Shown here: one piece after another, positions 5,348-57,255 of the stretch
How the letters are laid out: the number at the start of each line of letters is the position of its first letter
Position numbering within the stretch: position 1 is the stretch's first letter
Source of the DNA: Melioribacteraceae bacterium
GTDB taxonomy: Bacteria > Bacteroidota > Ignavibacteria > Ignavibacteriales > Melioribacteraceae
Length of the DNA: 64,000 bases
Direction of reading: 5' to 3'
Assembly (NCBI GenBank): GCA_021739765.1
Contig: JAIPBD010000021.1
Coordinates: 2,453-66,452, forward strand
Notes under the pieces: model-generated
The model's input: only the letters and a program-made list of their open reading frames with translations
Told to the model about the DNA's origin: nothing
Databases searched by the model: none
Program-made: the position numbers and the translations under genes

Positions 5348-6941
5348 TTTCTACTTCTGTTTTATTTAGTGGGAGTGAAAGTTTCATTGATGTACCCCGC
5401 GCTGAGGTTTCTTCCACTCGAATTGTTCCTTTATGATTTGCGATAATTCCGTACGCGATCGAAAGTCCTAAACCCGTTCCTTTCCCAATTGATTTTGTGG
5501 AATAAAATGGTTCGAAAATATGTTCGATATCATTTTTGGGAATTCCGCTTCCGTTATCAATCACACGAATCGTCGCATTTTTATTTTCTATGGAAAGGGA
5601 AATGCGAATATGACCGTCCTTTCCGACAGCTTCGATAGCATTCATAAATAATGAAATTAATGCCTGTTGAATTTTCTGTGAATTTCCGTTTATCGGTATT
5701 TTTTCTTCTTCCGGAATTTCCTTTTCAAGTTTGATGTTGTTCATCTCGAGATGATGATTAATCAAAGTTATACTTCGTTTCAGAGTATCAAGAAGATTGA
5801 ATTCTACAAATGCCTCATCTCCTCGGTGTGAAAATACTAGAAGGTCCTTCACAATTTTTCCGCATCGGGCTGATTCATCGGAAATCAATTCTAGAAATTC
5901 AATTATACTTTTGTACTGTTCCGGGTTTTCCTTTTTGTAAAGTTTTTTCTGGATCAGTTTACTGTAAGTTAAAATCCCTTCGAGTGGATTGTTCAATTCA
6001 TGCGCGACCGATGAAGAAAGTTTTCCAAGCGAAGCCAATTTTTCAATTTGTATAATCTGATTGTAAACAGATTTTAACTCTTCGGTTTTTTGTTCGACTT
6101 TTTCTTCAAGATGTTCGTTTAGCGATTTTATTTCATTCTGCGCGATTAATATCCTTTCTGACATCCGGTTGAATTGGGACGCCAGTTTTTGAAATTCGTC
6201 CGATGATGTCACCTCGATTTTATGTTCGAGATTTCCAGAAGCCAACTGATCAATTCCGGTTTTAATTTCGTTTAATGGTTTATTCACAAAAGCGGAGATA
6301 AAAAGTCCGATTAATACCGCGATTATTACCGTACTTCCAACCGTATTTAGTATTACACTTTTAAGGGTGTCGTTTACAATTTTATCGATGTGTTCGGTTG
6401 ACATCATTACTTCGAGAATGCCGAGAATTCTTTCATCTTTAGTATGTGCATGGCAGGGGGCGCTCCAACACGATTCATGGTTCTCAATCGGGTTTACTAA
6501 AATTATAGATTTCTGTTCATTTGCCATATCCTCAATTTGAATGCGGTCATTTAATGAAAGTGATTCGAGTGTAACTGAGTTATCATGGCATGGGGAGCAA
6601 AGATTGGAATTGATGTCAATTTCTTGATTGAGCATCGATAGATCGGATGTGTGCTGAACCAATCCTTTCTTATCGATAATATTGATTAACTGAATGCCCG
6701 GTTCTTCGCTGATGTGATCAATCATTACGGCAAGTCGTTCATCGTCATTGTAGGTCATACTCATCCGAAGACTATTTTTGATCACTTCACTAAAATTGTA
6801 TGTGCTTTGCCCGATGGTTTGAATCAGGTCTTTTCTTAATTGCCATGAAGTGAAAAATATTTCAGCGGCGAGTAGAATTATCAAAGTGAGTATAATTATT
6901 CCGATAAGTTTAATACCGATTTGATTCATAAATCTTTTCAT
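5337..6941 (-). CDS. Sensor histidine kinase with HAMP domain and heme-c motifs in the periplasmic loop
   Basis: TM helices at about aa 11-31 and 199-218. The loop between them carries CSPCH (aa 115-119) and CWSAPCH (aa 158-164). HAMP, H-box SSSVAHELNNPL and HATPase_c (GTGLGLSI) follow. Confidence 0.9.
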   Translation of the reverse strand: MKRFMNQIGIKLIGIIILTLIILLAAEIFFTSWQLRKDLIQTIGQSTYNFSEVIKNSLRMSMTYNDDERLAVMIDHISEEPGIQLINIIDKKGLVQHTSDLSMLNQEIDINSNLCSPCHDNSVTLESLSLNDRIQIEDMANEQKSIILVNPIENHESCWSAPCHAHTKDERILGILEVMMSTEHIDKIVNDTLKSVILNTVGSTVIIAVLIGLFISAFVNKPLNEIKTGIDQLASGNLEHKIEVTSSDEFQKLASQFNRMSERILIAQNEIKSLNEHLEEKVEQKTEELKSVYNQIIQIEKLASLGKLSSSVAHELNNPLEGILTYSKLIQKKLYKKENPEQYKSIIEFLELISDESARCGKIVKDLLVFSHRGDEAFVEFNLLDTLKRSITLINHHLEMNNIKLEKEIPEEEKIPINGNSQKIQQALISLFMNAIEAVGKDGHIRISLSIENKNATIRVIDNGSGIPKNDIEHIFEPFYSTKSIGKGTGLGLSIAYGIIANHKGTIRVEETSARGTSMKLSLPLNKTEVENVT

Positions 6942-10837: not shown

Positions 10838-12331
10838 TTATGGATTTAATCCGGTATGGCAATCCGTACAAAGTGATTCTTTCCACATTTCATCAATATC
10901 TACCGGATGTCTAAATTCCAACGGTTCGCCAAATTTTGCAACTTGTAAACTATCGGCGGGACCTTGCGCGTTGATTACGTGGCATTGATTACAATCATTT
11001 GAAATAACTTTGCCTTCCTCGGATTCGTGGTAAGAATCGTGGCAACGGAAACAGCCATCAAATTCAAAATGACCGATATTGTTGGGATAATAATCCCATC
11101 GGACTTTCATTTCAGGAAAAATGTTTTGATTAAAAGCGTTTTGAACACCAACAATACTTTTTTCGATTAATTCCTTCTGCTCTTCAAAAATGTCTTCATA
11201 ATCTTCGGAATAAAATTCCAGTATTCCATTACGAATTGCGGCCATCGCGGAATCGGTGGTCGGATACTCCTCGCCTAATAATTCCATAGTGAGAGACTTA
11301 ATTTCCGGCAGTTCAGGCGATACATCCCCTCGTGCCAAAGCTTCATTAATAAAAACAGCCGGAGGTCTGTAATTGTGAGACGGGCGGTTGTGGCAATCCA
11401 TACAATCCATAGTTCTTATCTCATAATTCCCCAATGAATCCGGATCGATAGAATCATCACCATCATAAACAGTTATTTCGCCGGTTTCTAAATTCGTATA
11501 TCGAACCCATGGGATTTCCTGTCTTTTTTCGTCTGTTGAAATATATTCAACTTTTGTATTTGGACTAATATGCCAATGGCTTCCTTCCGAAAGACTTTTC
11601 GCGCTGGATTCGGCACCAACTTTTACGGTTAAATTAATATCCCATCTTGTATTTTTTTCATCGCTTAAATAATGGATTTCTTTCCGCATTGTAGAAGAAT
11701 AAAATTTTTCCGGCCAATGGCATTGTTCACAAGTTTCACGGGCCGGACGAAGATTTTTAATCGGAGTCGGAATCGGTCGTTCATATGTATTTGCCATTAC
11801 TGCGTAAACCTGGTATAGTCCTGTGATTTTTGCTTTAACAAACCAATCAGCTCCCGAGCCGACATGGCATTCGGCGCACCCTACTCTCGCGTGTGCTGAT
11901 GTTTGATAAGCTGTGTATTCGGGTTTCATAACCTCGTGGCATATTTCTCCGCAGAATTGATCTGATTCCGAGAAATGAAACGCTTCATATCCGCCAATCG
12001 CAGAGGCAAATAATAAAATTGCGGTTCCAAAAAGAAATATTGCGGTAGCATTTCTGTGTTGAGGAGTATTTAGGTTTATAATCGGTAGTTTGCCCTTATT
12101 CTCTTCAGATTTTTTTTTCTCGAAATACATTCCAATCGGAATTAAAATGAGACCAAAAATCATTACTCCGGGTAAAATCATGTAAATAATTAGACCAAAG
12201 TAAGCGTTACCTCGGTCAAGAATTGTGGTAACGATAGCTAGAATTATGATTAGTGAGAATGTTATTGCGGCTATTACAGCCCCTGCCATCGAAATTAAAT
12301 TATAGAATGAATCTGGAAGTTTGTTTTTCAT
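10838..12331 (-). CDS. Inner-membrane multiheme cytochrome c, NapC/NirT-related, ImcH-like architecture (6 CxxCH + 1 CX3CH)
   Basis: Three N-terminal TM helices, then FCGEICHEVM, CAECH, CEQCH, CMDCH, CFRCH, CNQCH and CTDCH. The size (497 aa) and layout resemble Geobacter ImcH. Confidence 0.75.
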   Translation of the reverse strand: MKNKLPDSFYNLISMAGAVIAAITFSLIIILAIVTTILDRGNAYFGLIIYMILPGVMIFGLILIPIGMYFEKKKSEENKGKLPIINLNTPQHRNATAIFLFGTAILLFASAIGGYEAFHFSESDQFCGEICHEVMKPEYTAYQTSAHARVGCAECHVGSGADWFVKAKITGLYQVYAVMANTYERPIPTPIKNLRPARETCEQCHWPEKFYSSTMRKEIHYLSDEKNTRWDINLTVKVGAESSAKSLSEGSHWHISPNTKVEYISTDEKRQEIPWVRYTNLETGEITVYDGDDSIDPDSLGNYEIRTMDCMDCHNRPSHNYRPPAVFINEALARGDVSPELPEIKSLTMELLGEEYPTTDSAMAAIRNGILEFYSEDYEDIFEEQKELIEKSIVGVQNAFNQNIFPEMKVRWDYYPNNIGHFEFDGCFRCHDSYHESEEGKVISNDCNQCHVINAQGPADSLQVAKFGEPLEFRHPVDIDEMWKESLCTDCHTGLNP

Positions 12332-52879: not shown

Positions 52880-54244
52880 CTAATTAATTCCAGTCGGTTT
52901 TCGGATTCCATAATCTTGCATTTTCCGGAATAAATGAGTCCGGTCAATTCCTAATACAACCGCACTTTCGATGATTTTCCAATTGTTTTCATCCAATACT
53001 TTTACGATGTATTCTTGTTCAAAATTCTTTTTGGCCTCTTTTAGTGATGAAAAATCACCCGAGTCTTTTGTTGATATTTCACCTCCGAGCGCCGCATAAA
53101 CATCGGAAATATCAATAATTTCAGAGCCGGCAAACACGACCATTTTTTCAACGAGATTTCGTAATTCACGAACATTCCCCGGAAAACTTTGTTTGCTTAT
53201 CACCGCCAAAGCCTGCTGACTAAATGAATGGATTCTTTTGTTGTGGATATCTCTAAAATGTTTGAGAAAGTGACAAGCAAGATCCGGAATGTCTTCTGTT
53301 CGATCTCTTAAAGGCGGAACATGAATATTCACAACATTTAATCTGTGATAAAGATCTTCGCGGAATCTTCCTTCATTCACTTCCTTTTCCAATTCGCGGT
53401 TTGTTGCCGTTATTACCCTTACATTTATATTCATCGGTTTATTTTCGCCGACTACTTGAATTTCCCCTTCTTCAATTACTCTTAGCAATTTTGATTGTAG
53501 TTGAATCGGAAGTTCGCCGATTTCATCGAGGAAAATTGTCCCGCCTTCAGCCGCTCTGAATTTCCCCTTTGAATCAGCGGTGGCACCAGTAAAGGACCCG
53601 CGTTTATGGCCAAATAATTCACTTTCCAACAAGTCGTGAGGCATAGCCGCGCAATTAAGTTTTATATACTCTTTGTCCTTCCTTTTGCTGTGATGATGAA
53701 TCGCCCACGCAACCAATTCCTTTCCGGTACCACTCTCACCGGTAATTAAAATTTTAGCATCAGTTGTACATACCTGAGAAATGCTCTCGCGCAGTTTTTT
53801 AGTGCCTAAACTGGTACCGATTATTCTGTAATTTTTTTCAAGTTCACCAAGTAAAATTACATTCTCCTCTGTGAGACTGTAATTGCGTAGAGCATTATTA
53901 ACAGAAATAATTAATTTTTCAGCCTCAACAGGTTTTTCCAAAAAATCGAAAGCACCAAGTTTAATCGCTTCCATTGCTATCGAAATTGTACTTTGCCCGG
54001 AAATAAAAACCACGGGAATATTGATCTGGTTTTTCCTGAACTCGTTCATTAATTCAATACCATTCATACCCGGCATTTTAACGTCGCTAATCAATAAATC
54101 GTATTTATGCAGGTTACTATACTCAACCGCCTTAATTGGGTTGGATAAATAATCAACGGTGTGGTTCTCATTTTCGAGGGTTTTTTTCAATGATGAAAGA
54201 AAAACTTCATCATCATCAACCACTAAAATTTTGTGACGTATCAT
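52880..54244 (-). CDS. Sigma-54-dependent response regulator (NtrC family)
   Basis: REC domain (ILVVDDD..LISDVKMPGMNG), GESGTGKE, GSFTGA, C-terminal HTH. Confidence 0.9.
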   Translation of the reverse strand: MIRHKILVVDDDEVFLSSLKKTLENENHTVDYLSNPIKAVEYSNLHKYDLLISDVKMPGMNGIELMNEFRKNQINIPVVFISGQSTISIAMEAIKLGAFDFLEKPVEAEKLIISVNNALRNYSLTEENVILLGELEKNYRIIGTSLGTKKLRESISQVCTTDAKILITGESGTGKELVAWAIHHHSKRKDKEYIKLNCAAMPHDLLESELFGHKRGSFTGATADSKGKFRAAEGGTIFLDEIGELPIQLQSKLLRVIEEGEIQVVGENKPMNINVRVITATNRELEKEVNEGRFREDLYHRLNVVNIHVPPLRDRTEDIPDLACHFLKHFRDIHNKRIHSFSQQALAVISKQSFPGNVRELRNLVEKMVVFAGSEIIDISDVYAALGGEISTKDSGDFSSLKEAKKNFEQEYIVKVLDENNWKIIESAVVLGIDRTHLFRKMQDYGIRKPTGIN

Positions 54245-56674
54245 TTAAGTAACAATCTCCAGATAGAAATAAAATTCGGTTAGCCCCTTTTCGGAAATTA
54301 CATTAAGTTTTGAACCATGATCTTCTAATATTTTTTTCGCGATCGCTAAACCCAATCCGGTTCCATCTTGTTTGGTTGTAAAGTAAGGATTAAATATTTT
54401 CTCGATATCTGCATATTTTATGCCAGTTCCGGCATTTTTTACACAAACTTTTAACTTCATCATTTCTTTTGAAACAATTATGTTAATTTCACCTTTGCCT
54501 TTTACAGCGTCAATAGCGTTTTCAGTTAAAACGTGGAGGACTTCTTCAATTTCCGCGACATCAATGTTTACACAGAGATGGGAATAATTATTTTGATAGT
54601 TAAGCTCAATCTCATGATTTAAATAACTTTCAAATTTTCTAAATGATTTTTGAATTACCGAATCCAACAACACCATTTGTTTATTTGGCGGTTGCAGGTT
54701 CGCAAACTTTAGCAGATTGTTGGTGAGATTTTTAATCCGGTCAACTTCATTTTTTACAAGATCAAAATCCTTCCCGATTTCTTCATCTTCTTGATTACGT
54801 TTAGCCAAAGTTTTCCGGATATAATTTAGATTAAGATTGATCGATGAAAGCGGAGTTTTAATTTCATGCGCAACTTTCTGAATTGCATGGGACCAGACTT
54901 GGGAACGTTCCTTTAAAATCGCTTCAGTAAAATTTTCGATATACAAAAATGTGCTATTTAACAGATTAAATCGGTCCTTAAAAACATAAAAACGGACAAG
55001 CAGTCTCAAATTTTCCTCATCTTGCTTTAACTCAATCTCTTTTCGATCTGATGTTAGAGTTGAAATGGAATTTCTCACTATTTCTAAAAGTTGAGGAAAT
55101 TGTTTTACTGCTACGATCAGGTTGCTGTTTCTTTTTACGTTAAATAGAGCCTTAGCGTTAATGTTAGACTCAATTATCCTCAATTTATGGTTAGTAATAA
55201 TTAAATAAGCGTCTTCGCGGTTAAAAGTGTGAAAAAGATAATTCTGATAAAGTTTGGCTCTATCTGCCACAACTAAGAATAGTAGAATAAAATTGGGAAT
55301 TAGAAGAAATGCTATTAATGGAAATTGAATATAATCCCAAAGAACTTTTGGAGTGATTTTGCCGATAGTATATCCCACCAAATCATTTTCTATCCAATAA
55401 ACATCTGAACCCTCTTTTACATAATTAAATACATAGCCGGCATTAAAGTTAAAAATGGGGGCTTCCATGCTTCTAATTATATTCAGATATTTATCGTACC
55501 ATACAATTTTATCGACGTAGCGAATAAAGAAATAGTCGTCTGCTTGAATTACATTCCGTCCATTTTGCAGATCAAGGTCTGCAGTGTATTTGGTTAGTGT
55601 GAAATTATTATCAATCGTCCTCAGAGCATTGTTGATTGGAAGTGGAATATAATCACGAGGATCTTTTTTATCCGAAGTTAGAAATAATGGTTGTGGTGAA
55701 GTATAATTAATTGAAGATATTGTGTCGTTTTGAGGTGTGGTAAGAAGATATTTTTTATTTCCACTACCATTTTTATTTTTTTCTGAGGAACTGTAAGTAA
55801 TTAATGTTTTACCTTTATAATTTAGCAGATTCCAAGAAGTGCACAGCAAAGAATCCGGAAAACCATAATGATAGATTAAATTAAGATCTTTATCCAAATA
55901 AAACATTCTATCTGTCAGATCATTAAATACTGGCATTTGCGGTAAGTTGGTAGTGTTATAAACTGCATTAGTTATATAAAATATTTCACGATCACCATCG
56001 TTGTCAAAGTCGTAAATAGCCACTCTATTAATCGGGGATGCAGTTTCAAATTTCGCTACAATTTCATAGTTCCGAAGATCTATTTTATAAATCCCTCTGG
56101 GATAAATGGAATGACCGGAAGAAATACTTATATAGAAATATTTAGGATTGCGATCAGAATCAAACCCGACACTATGCGGTATGACATCCCATTTGTTGCG
56201 GAGGGCTTCTTCGGGACGTGAAAATATTTTTTTACTAAGAATGATTATACTATCAGCTTTATAGTCAAAAACACTTATATAAATTGAATCAGCGGTTCTG
56301 TGAAGTACAAAAATCTCATCAGAACCATCAGAGTTGATATCCTTAAATTCGATATTTCCCAAATCGAAATAAGTATTATCTATATTAAATTGTTTGCTTC
56401 CAAAATATGGTTTGAAGAGAGGTCCAGCTGCTAAACTCAATACACTTGTATTTCTCCCATTCCGATTAATAGTAACTTTCTGGATTGGTTTGTTTTTTTC
56501 GAATCTGTGAAGAATTGATCCACTTTGATTATTGTATAGGATGTGAGAAACATCAACAATTTTGATACTGCTTTTGGTCAGTTCAAATCCTACATGCAAA
56601 AGAGCAAGTAAAAAAGAAACAACCATTACTAACAAGTAAAGCTGATTTCGTGATTTCAATTTTAAATTCACCAT
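54245..56674 (-). CDS. Sensor histidine kinase with a large extracytoplasmic FG-GAP-like domain
   Basis: TM helix, then a ~430-aa outer domain with DINSDGSDEIFV and YDFDNDGDREIFY Ca-binding-like repeats. A second TM helix, H-box VAHEIKTPLSSI and HATPase_c (GTGLGLAI) follow. Confidence 0.85.
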   Translation of the reverse strand: MVNLKLKSRNQLYLLVMVVSFLLALLHVGFELTKSSIKIVDVSHILYNNQSGSILHRFEKNKPIQKVTINRNGRNTSVLSLAAGPLFKPYFGSKQFNIDNTYFDLGNIEFKDINSDGSDEIFVLHRTADSIYISVFDYKADSIIILSKKIFSRPEEALRNKWDVIPHSVGFDSDRNPKYFYISISSGHSIYPRGIYKIDLRNYEIVAKFETASPINRVAIYDFDNDGDREIFYITNAVYNTTNLPQMPVFNDLTDRMFYLDKDLNLIYHYGFPDSLLCTSWNLLNYKGKTLITYSSSEKNKNGSGNKKYLLTTPQNDTISSINYTSPQPLFLTSDKKDPRDYIPLPINNALRTIDNNFTLTKYTADLDLQNGRNVIQADDYFFIRYVDKIVWYDKYLNIIRSMEAPIFNFNAGYVFNYVKEGSDVYWIENDLVGYTIGKITPKVLWDYIQFPLIAFLLIPNFILLFLVVADRAKLYQNYLFHTFNREDAYLIITNHKLRIIESNINAKALFNVKRNSNLIVAVKQFPQLLEIVRNSISTLTSDRKEIELKQDEENLRLLVRFYVFKDRFNLLNSTFLYIENFTEAILKERSQVWSHAIQKVAHEIKTPLSSINLNLNYIRKTLAKRNQEDEEIGKDFDLVKNEVDRIKNLTNNLLKFANLQPPNKQMVLLDSVIQKSFRKFESYLNHEIELNYQNNYSHLCVNIDVAEIEEVLHVLTENAIDAVKGKGEINIIVSKEMMKLKVCVKNAGTGIKYADIEKIFNPYFTTKQDGTGLGLAIAKKILEDHGSKLNVISEKGLTEFYFYLEIVT

Positions 56675-56761
56675 ATCACATCTCTACATTAAACATACCA
56701 AAAGCCGAAATTCTATTAACTAAATATTAATAGGTAATACCAAAAGAGTAAAATATGTAAG

Positions 56762-56814
56762 ATGTTGTAAAAGTACAACATTAAGAGGAAAGTTATGTTG
56801 TATTTCTGCAACAT
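56762..56814. promoter_or_regulatory. Pair of ATGTTG-N8-CAACAT palindromes (candidate enhancer-binding-protein sites), pair 1
   Basis: atgttgtaaaagtacaacat at 56762-56781 and atgttgtatttctgcaacat at 56795-56814; centres are 33 bp apart. Confidence 0.55.
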
Positions 56815-56862
56815 GGAAAGGAAAACTGACTTAAAATATCAAATAATGAGTAGTTTTTGATT

Positions 56863-56877
56863 GTGGAATACTATTTG
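56863..56877 (+). promoter_or_regulatory. Candidate sigma-54 promoter TGGAAT-N5-TTGA
   Basis: GG and TTG at canonical spacing, about 75-100 bp downstream of palindrome pair 1. Both elements are imperfect. Confidence 0.3.
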
Positions 56878-56884
56878 AGGTAAG

Positions 56885-56950
56885 TGCTAATAGCTCCAAA
56901 GGGCGACTCTCCTATTCAGGCGGCTGGCTATGAGCAGTCGCCTTTTTTAT
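56885..56950 (+). ncRNA. Candidate ~60-nt small RNA ending in an intrinsic terminator
   Basis: ggcgact(ctc)...(gagc)agtcgcc followed by tttttt at 56902-56948. There is no protein-coding gene upstream on this strand. Preceded by the candidate promoter at 56863. Confidence 0.3.
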
Positions 56951-57081
56951 CAAATCCTAATCATAATCACAGACTTCAATCCAAGATATTATTTATTGGC
57001 CCTAATCTGACACAAAAAGCTACAGCTCCGTTATCTAAAAATTGATAAATAATAATAGAAATATAAAAATACAGAAAACAA

Positions 57082-57133
57082 ATATTGCGAAAGCACAACA
57101 TATAAAGAAGCCGACGTTGTAAAAGTACAACAT
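57082..57133. promoter_or_regulatory. Pair of ATGTTG-N8-CAACAT-like palindromes, pair 2
   Basis: atattgcgaaagcacaacat at 57082-57101 and acgttgtaaaagtacaacat at 57114-57133; centres are 32 bp apart. Confidence 0.55.
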
Positions 57134-57208
57134 ATAATAATATGAGTATGTAGAATTAAGTTGGCTAAATGCTAGTAAATACAATGGGAGTTATTATAGT
57201 GAAAGTAT

Positions 57209-57224
57209 TGGTACAGATATTGTT
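57209..57224 (+). promoter_or_regulatory. Candidate sigma-54 promoter TGGTAC-N5-TTGT for the lipoprotein operon
   Basis: tggtacagatattgtt lies about 100 bp downstream of pair 2 and 32 nt upstream of the ATG at 57256. Same geometry as pair 1 and the 56863 promoter. Confidence 0.4.
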
Positions 57225-57255
57225 GTAAAAATAAAGTAAATATTTTGAGGGAGAT

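Follow-up and report, generated by a model that had tools for sequence, protein, structure and literature searches.

What purpose is served by a spacer of 580 bp that separates the gene for a sensor histidine kinase (HK1) from the divergently oriented gene for an LpoB-like lipoprotein, and that holds two pairs of palindromes and two plus-strand elements resembling sigma-54 promoters, the first of which (P1) leads into ~60 nt without an open reading frame (ORF) and the second (P2) into the lipoprotein operon? We examined this question in a Melioribacteraceae bacterium (G000; 4.5 Mb, 36.8% GC), in a stretch of 64,000 nucleotides, referred to here as the window, which corresponds to positions 2453-66452 of contig C25; C, G and L numbers denote contigs, genomes and loci throughout. 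We favour, with modest confidence, the reading that a sigma-54 two-component system has its cis-regulatory hub in the spacer, a hub that would include P2, autoregulation of the kinase and its partner activator, and a small RNA made from P1.

The palindromes, from which the argument starts, are the following.

56762-56781, unstranded: putative activator site 1, ATGTTGTAAAAGTACAACAT, a perfect ATGTTG-N8-CAACAT
56795-56814, unstranded: putative activator site 2, ATGTTGTATTTCTGCAACAT, also perfect, 33 bp from site 1
57082-57101, unstranded: putative activator site 3, ATATTGCGAAAGCACAACAT, ATATTG..CAACAT, one mismatch
57114-57133, unstranded: putative activator site 4, ACGTTGTAAAAGTACAACAT, ACGTTG..CAACAT, one mismatch, 32 bp from site 3

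An earlier note on this DNA had reported 20-bp sites beginning at 56762, 56795, 57082 and 57114, and we recovered all four at these coordinates as two pairs, the spacings being measured from start to start. When one mismatch is allowed, ATGTTG-N8-CAACAT has four matches in the 64 kb, against 0.20 expected, all of them in the spacer, and four matches were reached in none of 100 shuffles of the window. With two mismatches permitted the window contains four further matches, which is the chance level. Across the whole genome the core GTTG-N8-CAAC lies chiefly within genes; its rare intergenic copies include three of the four window sites and a perfect ATGTTGCAAAAATACAACAT at C17:2239-2258. The layout had been called duplicated, which is accurate for the presence of two pairs and not for a simple tandem duplication, since the likenesses run between site 1 and site 4 (18 bases are identical) and between site 2 and site 3 read in reverse complement. 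Measured from their centres, the sites are 61-119 nt away from the GG of each of the promoters, three in all, that are proposed below.

With the reversed pattern as control, we screened 300 genomes of the order for paired GTTG-N8-CAAC sites at a distance of 15-19 nt from each other. Such pairs were found in nine other genomes and the control pattern in none; in six of the nine the pair lies no more than 600 nt from a sigma-54 activator gene, with a GG-N10-G element 38-75 nt beyond, and the within-pair spacing of 32-34 bp recurs in relatives. Orthologues of the activator encoded next to HK1 form a group in ~20 genomes of the family (46-54% identity, compared with a paralogue background of 43-46%). 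The group has in common the helix-turn-helix (HTH) motif LGIDRTxLFKKM, in which a paralogue in the host genome differs, and the order kinase then activator is kept in ~20 related genomes. The half-site ATGTTGC/GCAACAT adjoins the orthologous kinase-activator operons at ~13 of the 15 Melioribacteraceae loci that could be judged. It is situated 50-140 nt upstream of the kinase start at L096, L097, L098, L100, L101, L104, L105, L108 and L109, in an inverted arrangement at L099 and L102, and directly after the activator stop codon at L056 and L114; among these 15 loci it is missing from L112 and L113 only. Because the half-site accompanies the orthologous operons in this manner, we consider it very likely that the palindromes are binding sites of the neighbouring NtrC-type activator, and this co-occurrence is the strongest evidence for that regulator as the presumed binder. 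The earlier note had already proposed it as such, and in this respect the co-occurrence bears the proposal out; the adjacency given in the note is not direct, as the 809-aa kinase gene, a member of the same operon, intervenes. The flanking genes are these.

52880-54244, minus strand: NtrC-type sigma-54 enhancer-binding response regulator (Pfam Response_reg, Sigma54_activat and HTH_8)
54245-56674, minus strand: sensor histidine kinase HK1, 809 aa (Pfam), first gene of the HK1-activator operon
57256-64000, plus strand: envelope operon for the LpoB-like lipoprotein, a TPR protein, an LPP20-like lipoprotein, an outer-membrane beta-barrel and others (Pfam, ORFs)

The translated activator displays D54, the Walker A motif GESGTGKE and GSFTGA, with a receiver, an AAA+ domain and a Fis-type HTH; it falls below every NCBIfam equivalog cut-off tested, including those for LuxO, GlrR, AtoC and NtrC. 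HK1 has an N-terminal membrane helix, a large extracytoplasmic FG-GAP-like region, and HisKA and HATPase domains. In the downstream sequence the envelope operon continues past the end of the window to C25:69765. The nearest homologues of the window proteins belong to Ignavibacteriales and to metagenome-assembled genomes of Ignavibacteria, and no other species of the same genus was present among the genome collection searched.

Three elements of the spacer resemble sigma-54 promoters.

57209-57223, plus strand: P2, sigma-54 promoter TGGTACAGATATTGT, of the TGG[CT]A[CT]-N5-TTG[A/T/C] class
56700 to 56686, minus strand: sigma-54-like element TGGTATGTTTAATGT, proposed promoter of the HK1-activator operon, 11 nt before the HK1 ATG
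56864-56878, plus strand: P1, sigma-54-like element TGGAATACTATTTGA (GG at 56865-66, G at 56877), 50 nt past site 2

All three have GG and GC/G 10 nt apart, in each case as GG-N10-G, and the genome contains rpoN (C6:73303-73776). The earlier note had described both plus-strand elements, and both are present, the coordinates of the first being off by 1 nt. Across the genome, the intergenic share of TGG[CT]A[CT]-N5-TTGN elements varies with the last base, being 42% when this is A, 40% when it is T, 27% when it is C and 9% when it is G; the value for TTGG equals the non-coding fraction of the genome, and the other classes are ~3-4x above this background. Because the A and T classes are enriched between genes in this way, sigma-54 promoters of the host mostly end in TTGA or TTGT and not in the textbook TTGC. 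P2 fits the enriched class, which upholds the earlier proposal of a second promoter serving the lipoprotein operon. It is placed 77 nt past site 4 and 33 nt before the ATG of the LpoB-like gene, ahead of the Shine-Dalgarno sequence GAGGGAG, and it is quite likely that P2 drives the LpoB-like lipoprotein operon.

On the other side of the spacer, the divergent HK1 start (56674) has pair 1 upstream of it at a distance of 88-140 nt, and the kinase-side element is 62 nt from site 1. At L099 and L102 we found TGGATTGATTTTTGC between the palindromes and the kinase start, likewise 11 nt before the ATG, and further kinase-side GG-N10-G elements are present at L105 (TGGATTGATTTTTGT), L100 (TGGTTTAATTTTTGT), L097 (GGGTTCGATTTTTGC), L108 and L109 (GGGAATATTAATTGC) and L101 (AGGTTTAATATTTGA). 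Because what the group conserves is the presence of sites upstream of the kinase, autoregulation is most likely what pair 1 primarily serves. That it acts positively, driving expression of both HK1 and the activator, is reasonably probable, and this role had been missed in the earlier note.

The remaining question concerns the ~60 nt between P1 and the T-run, for which two more features are needed.

56889-56948, plus strand: candidate small RNA of ~60 nt, consisting of a ~10-nt 5' tail, a hairpin (56898-56946) and T6 (56943-56948), its start placed by reference to P1
56920-56968, plus strand: copy 1 of a 49-nt repeat, which takes in the hairpin's 3' arm and the T-run, extends 20 nt further and is 94% identical to copy 2

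The earlier claim of a stem followed by TTTTTT and lacking an ORF after the first promoter withstood closer analysis. The 49-nt hairpin folds at -24.8 kcal/mol (z = -3.1) and, together with T6, is the sole terminator-like site within 56400-57400; the interval from P1 to the T-run (56879-56948) accommodates no ORF. No upstream plus-strand gene requires this terminator, and because the upstream gene is divergent, a terminator on the plus strand presupposes either that transcription begins on this strand within the spacer or that stray antisense transcripts enter it. The unit has the generic layout of a small-RNA gene, with a promoter of its own (presumed active), no ORF and an intrinsic terminator. 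P1 retains GG-N10-G and TTTGA, with a weaker -24 box in which the fourth base is A. Its distance to the proximal site matches the 38-50 nt observed for promoters in relatives, and TGGAAY boxes follow palindromes in three other genomes, as TGGAATGAAACTTGT at L054, TGGAACGGAATTTGT at L101 and TGGAACGATTTCTGT at L098, where the box precedes a secreted-protein gene. P1 is further favoured by the rarity of chance matches to TGG-N8-TTG[ACT], of which a 100-nt stretch should contain one in only ~2% of cases. A -7 box of the Bacteroidetes type (TAnnTTTG) was considered as a substitute for P1 and, judged by eye, does not fit.

Comparable units were identified at three loci of relatives. At L101 (G015; unit at 10905-11092), palindromes at 10905-23 and 10938-55, divergent from the kinase gene, are followed by TGGAACGGAATTTGT at 10994-11008 and a candidate RNA of ~75 nt with two hairpins and T7; a convergent gene comes next, leaving no coding target, and the layout is the same as that in the window. 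At L056 (6812-7048), in the same genome and with an activator 54% identical to that of the window, a pair after the activator stop codon precedes the consensus element TGGCATAAGCTTTGC, ~125 nt free of ORFs and a strong terminator. At L114 (G184; ~6430-6757) the pair is again located after the activator stop codon and is followed by CGGCATAATAATTGA, ~230 nt without a convincing ORF, a GC-rich hairpin with T4 and a convergent gene. The support for a small RNA that comes from these relatives (two loci in G015 and one in G184) is one of layout, not of sequence. Rfam gave no match at E values up to 10 in 56000-58000, and none for the units at L101, L056 and L114. The genome holds no paralogous small-RNA copies of the kind represented by Qrr1-5, only the 49-nt partial copy, and it lacks Hfq, for which neither a whole-genome Pfam search (PF17209) nor tblastn produced a match. 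A scan for RNA duplexes with all gene starts returned unrealistically long duplexes, among which the LpoB leader was unremarkable (-18.6, compared with -34.5 for the top hit). Taking the layout and the terminator together, we regard the transcript from P1 to the terminator as a plausible candidate for a functional small RNA, with prospects that we place at about even or slightly below.

A different kind of unit was observed at L062:6999-7290 (G031), where a palindrome pair, TGGCACTAGTTTTGT, a strong Shine-Dalgarno sequence, a 26-codon ORF (MKKSLLDSNIRYLKLIGFCLIRGLFF) and a T-run succeed one another and a convergent kinase gene adjoins; this unit may be a small protein driven by sigma-54. We also noted a second clade of sigma-54 activators, of ~577 aa and with a different N-terminal domain, at L055, L057, L059, L060 and L061 (genera g33 and g35). 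Downstream of these activators we found paired GTTG-N8-CAAC, CGGCAY-N5-TTTGA and a small receiver-like gene.

Several observations weigh against the hub as we have drawn it, in particular against its small RNA. On sequence alone P1 is the weaker candidate, because the TGGAA class to which it belongs shows no enrichment between genes in the host genome (23 of 333 elements, or 7%, are intergenic); moreover, palindromes are located upstream of none of the 13 other intergenic TGGAA-type elements checked in the genome. Nearly all of the 60 nt is terminator hairpin, with a free tail of ~10 nt, and half of that hairpin is the 49-nt repeat, suggesting a relic of rearrangement. The candidate RNAs of the relatives have no sequence in common with each other or with the window RNA, and the one tested, from L114, has no homologue elsewhere in the family. 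The geometry on the kinase side predicts a leaderless or nearly leaderless mRNA. When the LpoB-like protein was compared with the genomes and metagenome contigs, the best match was 58% identical and none was closer. The spacer DNA likewise found no close relative among 30 relatives, HK1 yielded no orthologues in the genomes and metagenome contigs by that route, and an exact-protein look-up returned identical contigs only, which derive from samples SRR12088349 and SRR12088351. Finally, the palindromes were not found upstream of 24 LpoB-like operons elsewhere. Conservation at orthologous operons had been named in the earlier note as a point on which its proposal could fail, and on this point the result was negative; it is not decisive, because these 24 loci are distant (no more than 58% identity) and unlinked to the two-component system, and the absence of palindromes from them fits a recent recruitment of the operon.

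The 49-nt repeat is pertinent to such a recruitment. Its second copy, at C25:69934-69982 (locus L127), lies ~3.5 kb past the end of the window and at the far end of the operon, with the result that direct repeats bracket pair 2, P2 and the whole operon, ~10.5 kb in all; public Logan contigs break exactly at the repeat. The end of C25 overlaps the start of C17 by 124 nt. Joined in this way, the order is activator and HK1 (minus strand), pair 1, P1, copy 1, pair 2, P2, operon, copy 2, HK2 (minus strand) and the single palindrome of C17 mentioned above, which is located ~80 nt upstream of the HK2 start. HK2 (on the minus strand at locus L126, spanning the junction between the end of C25 and C17:1-2161) is a paralogue of HK1; no activator gene follows it, and as it carries an in-frame stop (IPI*FND) it is possibly a pseudogene. 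The direct repeats around the operon hint that a rearrangement placed it under the control of the system and that the hairpin is in part a relic. Copy 2 folds poorly (z = 0.1), whereas copy 1 has a matched 5' arm and the far stronger fold given above, and for these reasons copy 1 appears to be kept as a structure and not to be decaying. A genomic island flanked by the repeats was considered speculative and set aside, as there was no integrase among the ORFs inspected between the copies and no shift in GC content. Close to the single palindrome of C17 we noted a long-hairpin element of ~140 nt (C17:2345-2495, L126; fold z = -4.0), with at least seven copies at 89-95% identity (two each on C4 and C6, and others on C19, C24 and C30), which looks like a MITE- or REP-like repeat.

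These results leave room for other explanations of P1 and the hairpin. The one that we take most seriously, and nevertheless think unlikely, is that the palindromes and P2 act as proposed above but pair 1 autoregulates the kinase-activator operon and nothing else, that P1 is a chance match, and that the hairpin is an insulating terminator or a relic of rearrangement, with no functional small RNA; the terminator, if an insulator, would keep stray plus-strand transcription, for example antisense to the kinase gene, out of the operon. The lack of intergenic enrichment of the TGGAA class favours this explanation, as does the number of such elements: TGG-N8-TTG[ACT] has ~2,000 matches in the genome, equivalent to a chance of ~2% per 100-nt stretch and more in AT-rich spacers. 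It is also favoured by the direct repeats that bracket pair 2, P2 and the operon, and by the conservation of palindromes upstream of the kinase when ORF-less units are known from two genomes only. A chance P1, however, would not be expected to stand at the distance from its proximal site that promoters in relatives keep, nor does chance sit well with TGGAAY boxes past palindromes in three other genomes. Insulation does not explain L101, which has the same divergent unit with no downstream operon to insulate, and the hairpin of copy 1, being far stronger than that of copy 2, speaks for maintenance rather than decay.

Since everything from P1 through the hairpin, pair 2 and P2 to the operon lies on the plus strand with no intervening gene, P1 and the hairpin could alternatively serve the lipoprotein operon as a leader or attenuator, with tandem sigma-54 promoters and read-through whenever the terminator is bypassed. 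We think this improbable, given that the 60-nt leader shows no competing structure that could act as an antiterminator (the 3' arm is shared by both foldings), that there is no Rfam riboswitch or leader match, that P2 has a site pair of its own, and that the unit at L101 is followed by a convergent gene, leaving nothing downstream to attenuate. Very improbable, in our estimation, is a small-protein gene in place of an RNA regulator, in which a small hydrophobic peptide would have its first codons in the core of the repeat (MSSRLFYQILIII..., ATG at 56930). In its favour, the sole in-frame difference between the copies is synonymous (CTA/CTT), and past the core they first diverge by a 3-nt indel that keeps the frame; but a ribosome-binding site is missing, the hairpin buries the ATG, the frame crosses the T6 terminator, the 13 shared codons are too few for statistics, and the tail of copy 2 overlaps the HK2 gene on the opposite strand. 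The frame itself (56930-57010, and C25:69944 onward) runs for 26 codons in copy 1 and 43 in copy 2, and is probably fortuitous.

Returning to the spacer as a regulatory hub, we propose the following sequence of events, in which binding, autoregulation and above all transcription from P1 are what we infer. The extracytoplasmic domain of HK1 would sense a signal and bring about phosphorylation of the NtrC-type activator, whose dimers would then bind the palindromes, four in number and of the form (A)TGTTG-N8-CAAC(A)T. The sites of each pair, lying on one face of the helix and about three turns apart, would nucleate an AAA+ ring able to activate the sigma-54 holoenzyme at three promoters, namely P2, the minus-strand element and P1. 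P2 would transcribe the LpoB-like envelope-lipoprotein operon; the minus-strand promoter would transcribe HK1 and the activator, with a start at or beside the ATG, amounting to positive autoregulation; and P1 would give the ~60-nt ORF-less transcript that ends at the hairpin and T6, a small RNA divergent from its own two-component system and acting without Hfq. A broader and more tentative idea, which we think possible, is that the Hfq-less Melioribacteraceae use a clade of NtrC-type systems, each autoregulated through ATGTTGC palindromes and each equipped with its own fast-evolving, adjacent sigma-54 small RNA, and that the rearrangement at the 49-nt repeats recruited the operon in the present case.

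The analysis provides a concrete regulon for an unstudied sigma-54 two-component system of the Ignavibacteriota, a group with almost no experimental genetics, in the form of a predicted motif, three promoters and an output operon for envelope lipoproteins. The preference for TTGA and TTGT endings matters for promoter prediction in this lineage. Small RNAs throughout the family, if real, would mark the first description of activator-controlled regulatory RNAs from the Ignavibacteriota; in the literature that we searched, no paper connected Ignavibacteria with sigma-54 small RNAs. As a separate observation, LpoB-like genes of Longimicrobiaceae (L023, L024 and L122-L124) have a conserved GG-N10-GC (GGGTACGCCCGATGC or CGGTATGGCCGATGC) ~100-140 nt upstream, and this operon type may therefore be under sigma-54 control in another phylum as well.

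If the small RNA is genuine, the pattern of an activator with an adjacent small RNA, known from LuxO-Qrr1, GlrR-GlmY and CbrB-CrcZ, would extend to a phylum free of Hfq. GlrR binds three TGTC-N10-GACA motifs, which are 18-bp inverted repeats, upstream of glmY's sigma-54 promoter (PMC3045617), and the GlrK/GlrR (QseE/QseF) system of Enterobacteriaceae is concerned with cell-envelope homeostasis and has a lipoprotein partner (PMC6075780). The likeness to our locus lies in a kinase and NtrC-type regulator beside a sigma-54 small-RNA gene (a candidate here) and in the TGT-N12-ACA frame that the GlrR sites have in common with TGTTG-N8-CAACA, the half-site sequence being different. The activator described here is not GlrR (370 bits against a cut-off of 763, and no Rfam match to GlmY or GlmZ). 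The candidate RNA also differs from GlmY in its length of 60 nt, its orientation divergent from the kinase gene and its lack of similarity to GlmY in Rfam, and the host belongs to the Ignavibacteriota and not to the Proteobacteria, with a system known from sequence alone.

In the LuxO system of Vibrio, qrr1 shares one spacer with the luxO operon, together with the activator sites and the sigma-54 promoter (PMC8043402). Our candidate small RNA is likewise beside the activator operon in one common spacer, and the working mode would be similar. The LuxO half-site, TTGCA, is contained in the TGTTGCA of the relatives. The Qrr-like layout noticed earlier stands as far as an ORF-less unit from promoter to terminator is concerned; membership of the LuxO/Qrr family does not, as the activator scores 355 bits with the NCBIfam LuxO model against a cut-off of 800, Rfam gives no Qrr match under the search described above, and the genome lacks Hfq. 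The locus differs further in having a single RNA candidate with no genome paralogues, and a kinase coupled directly to the activator with no phosphorelay. The third system, CbrA/CbrB of Pseudomonas, has crcZ directly after cbrB, sigma-54-dependent and with an activator site between the two (PMC5113210), which is the layout of the relatives at L056 and L114; the window candidate, in contrast, is upstream of the kinase gene and divergent from it, and CrcZ is ~400 nt long and sequesters Hfq/Crc, neither of which applies here. More generally, control over the exterior of bacteria has been ascribed to sigma-54 (Francke et al. 2011, PMC3162934), and a P2 that drives an operon for a lipoprotein and an outer-membrane barrel would conform to this trend, which is a general one and does not describe a specific system.

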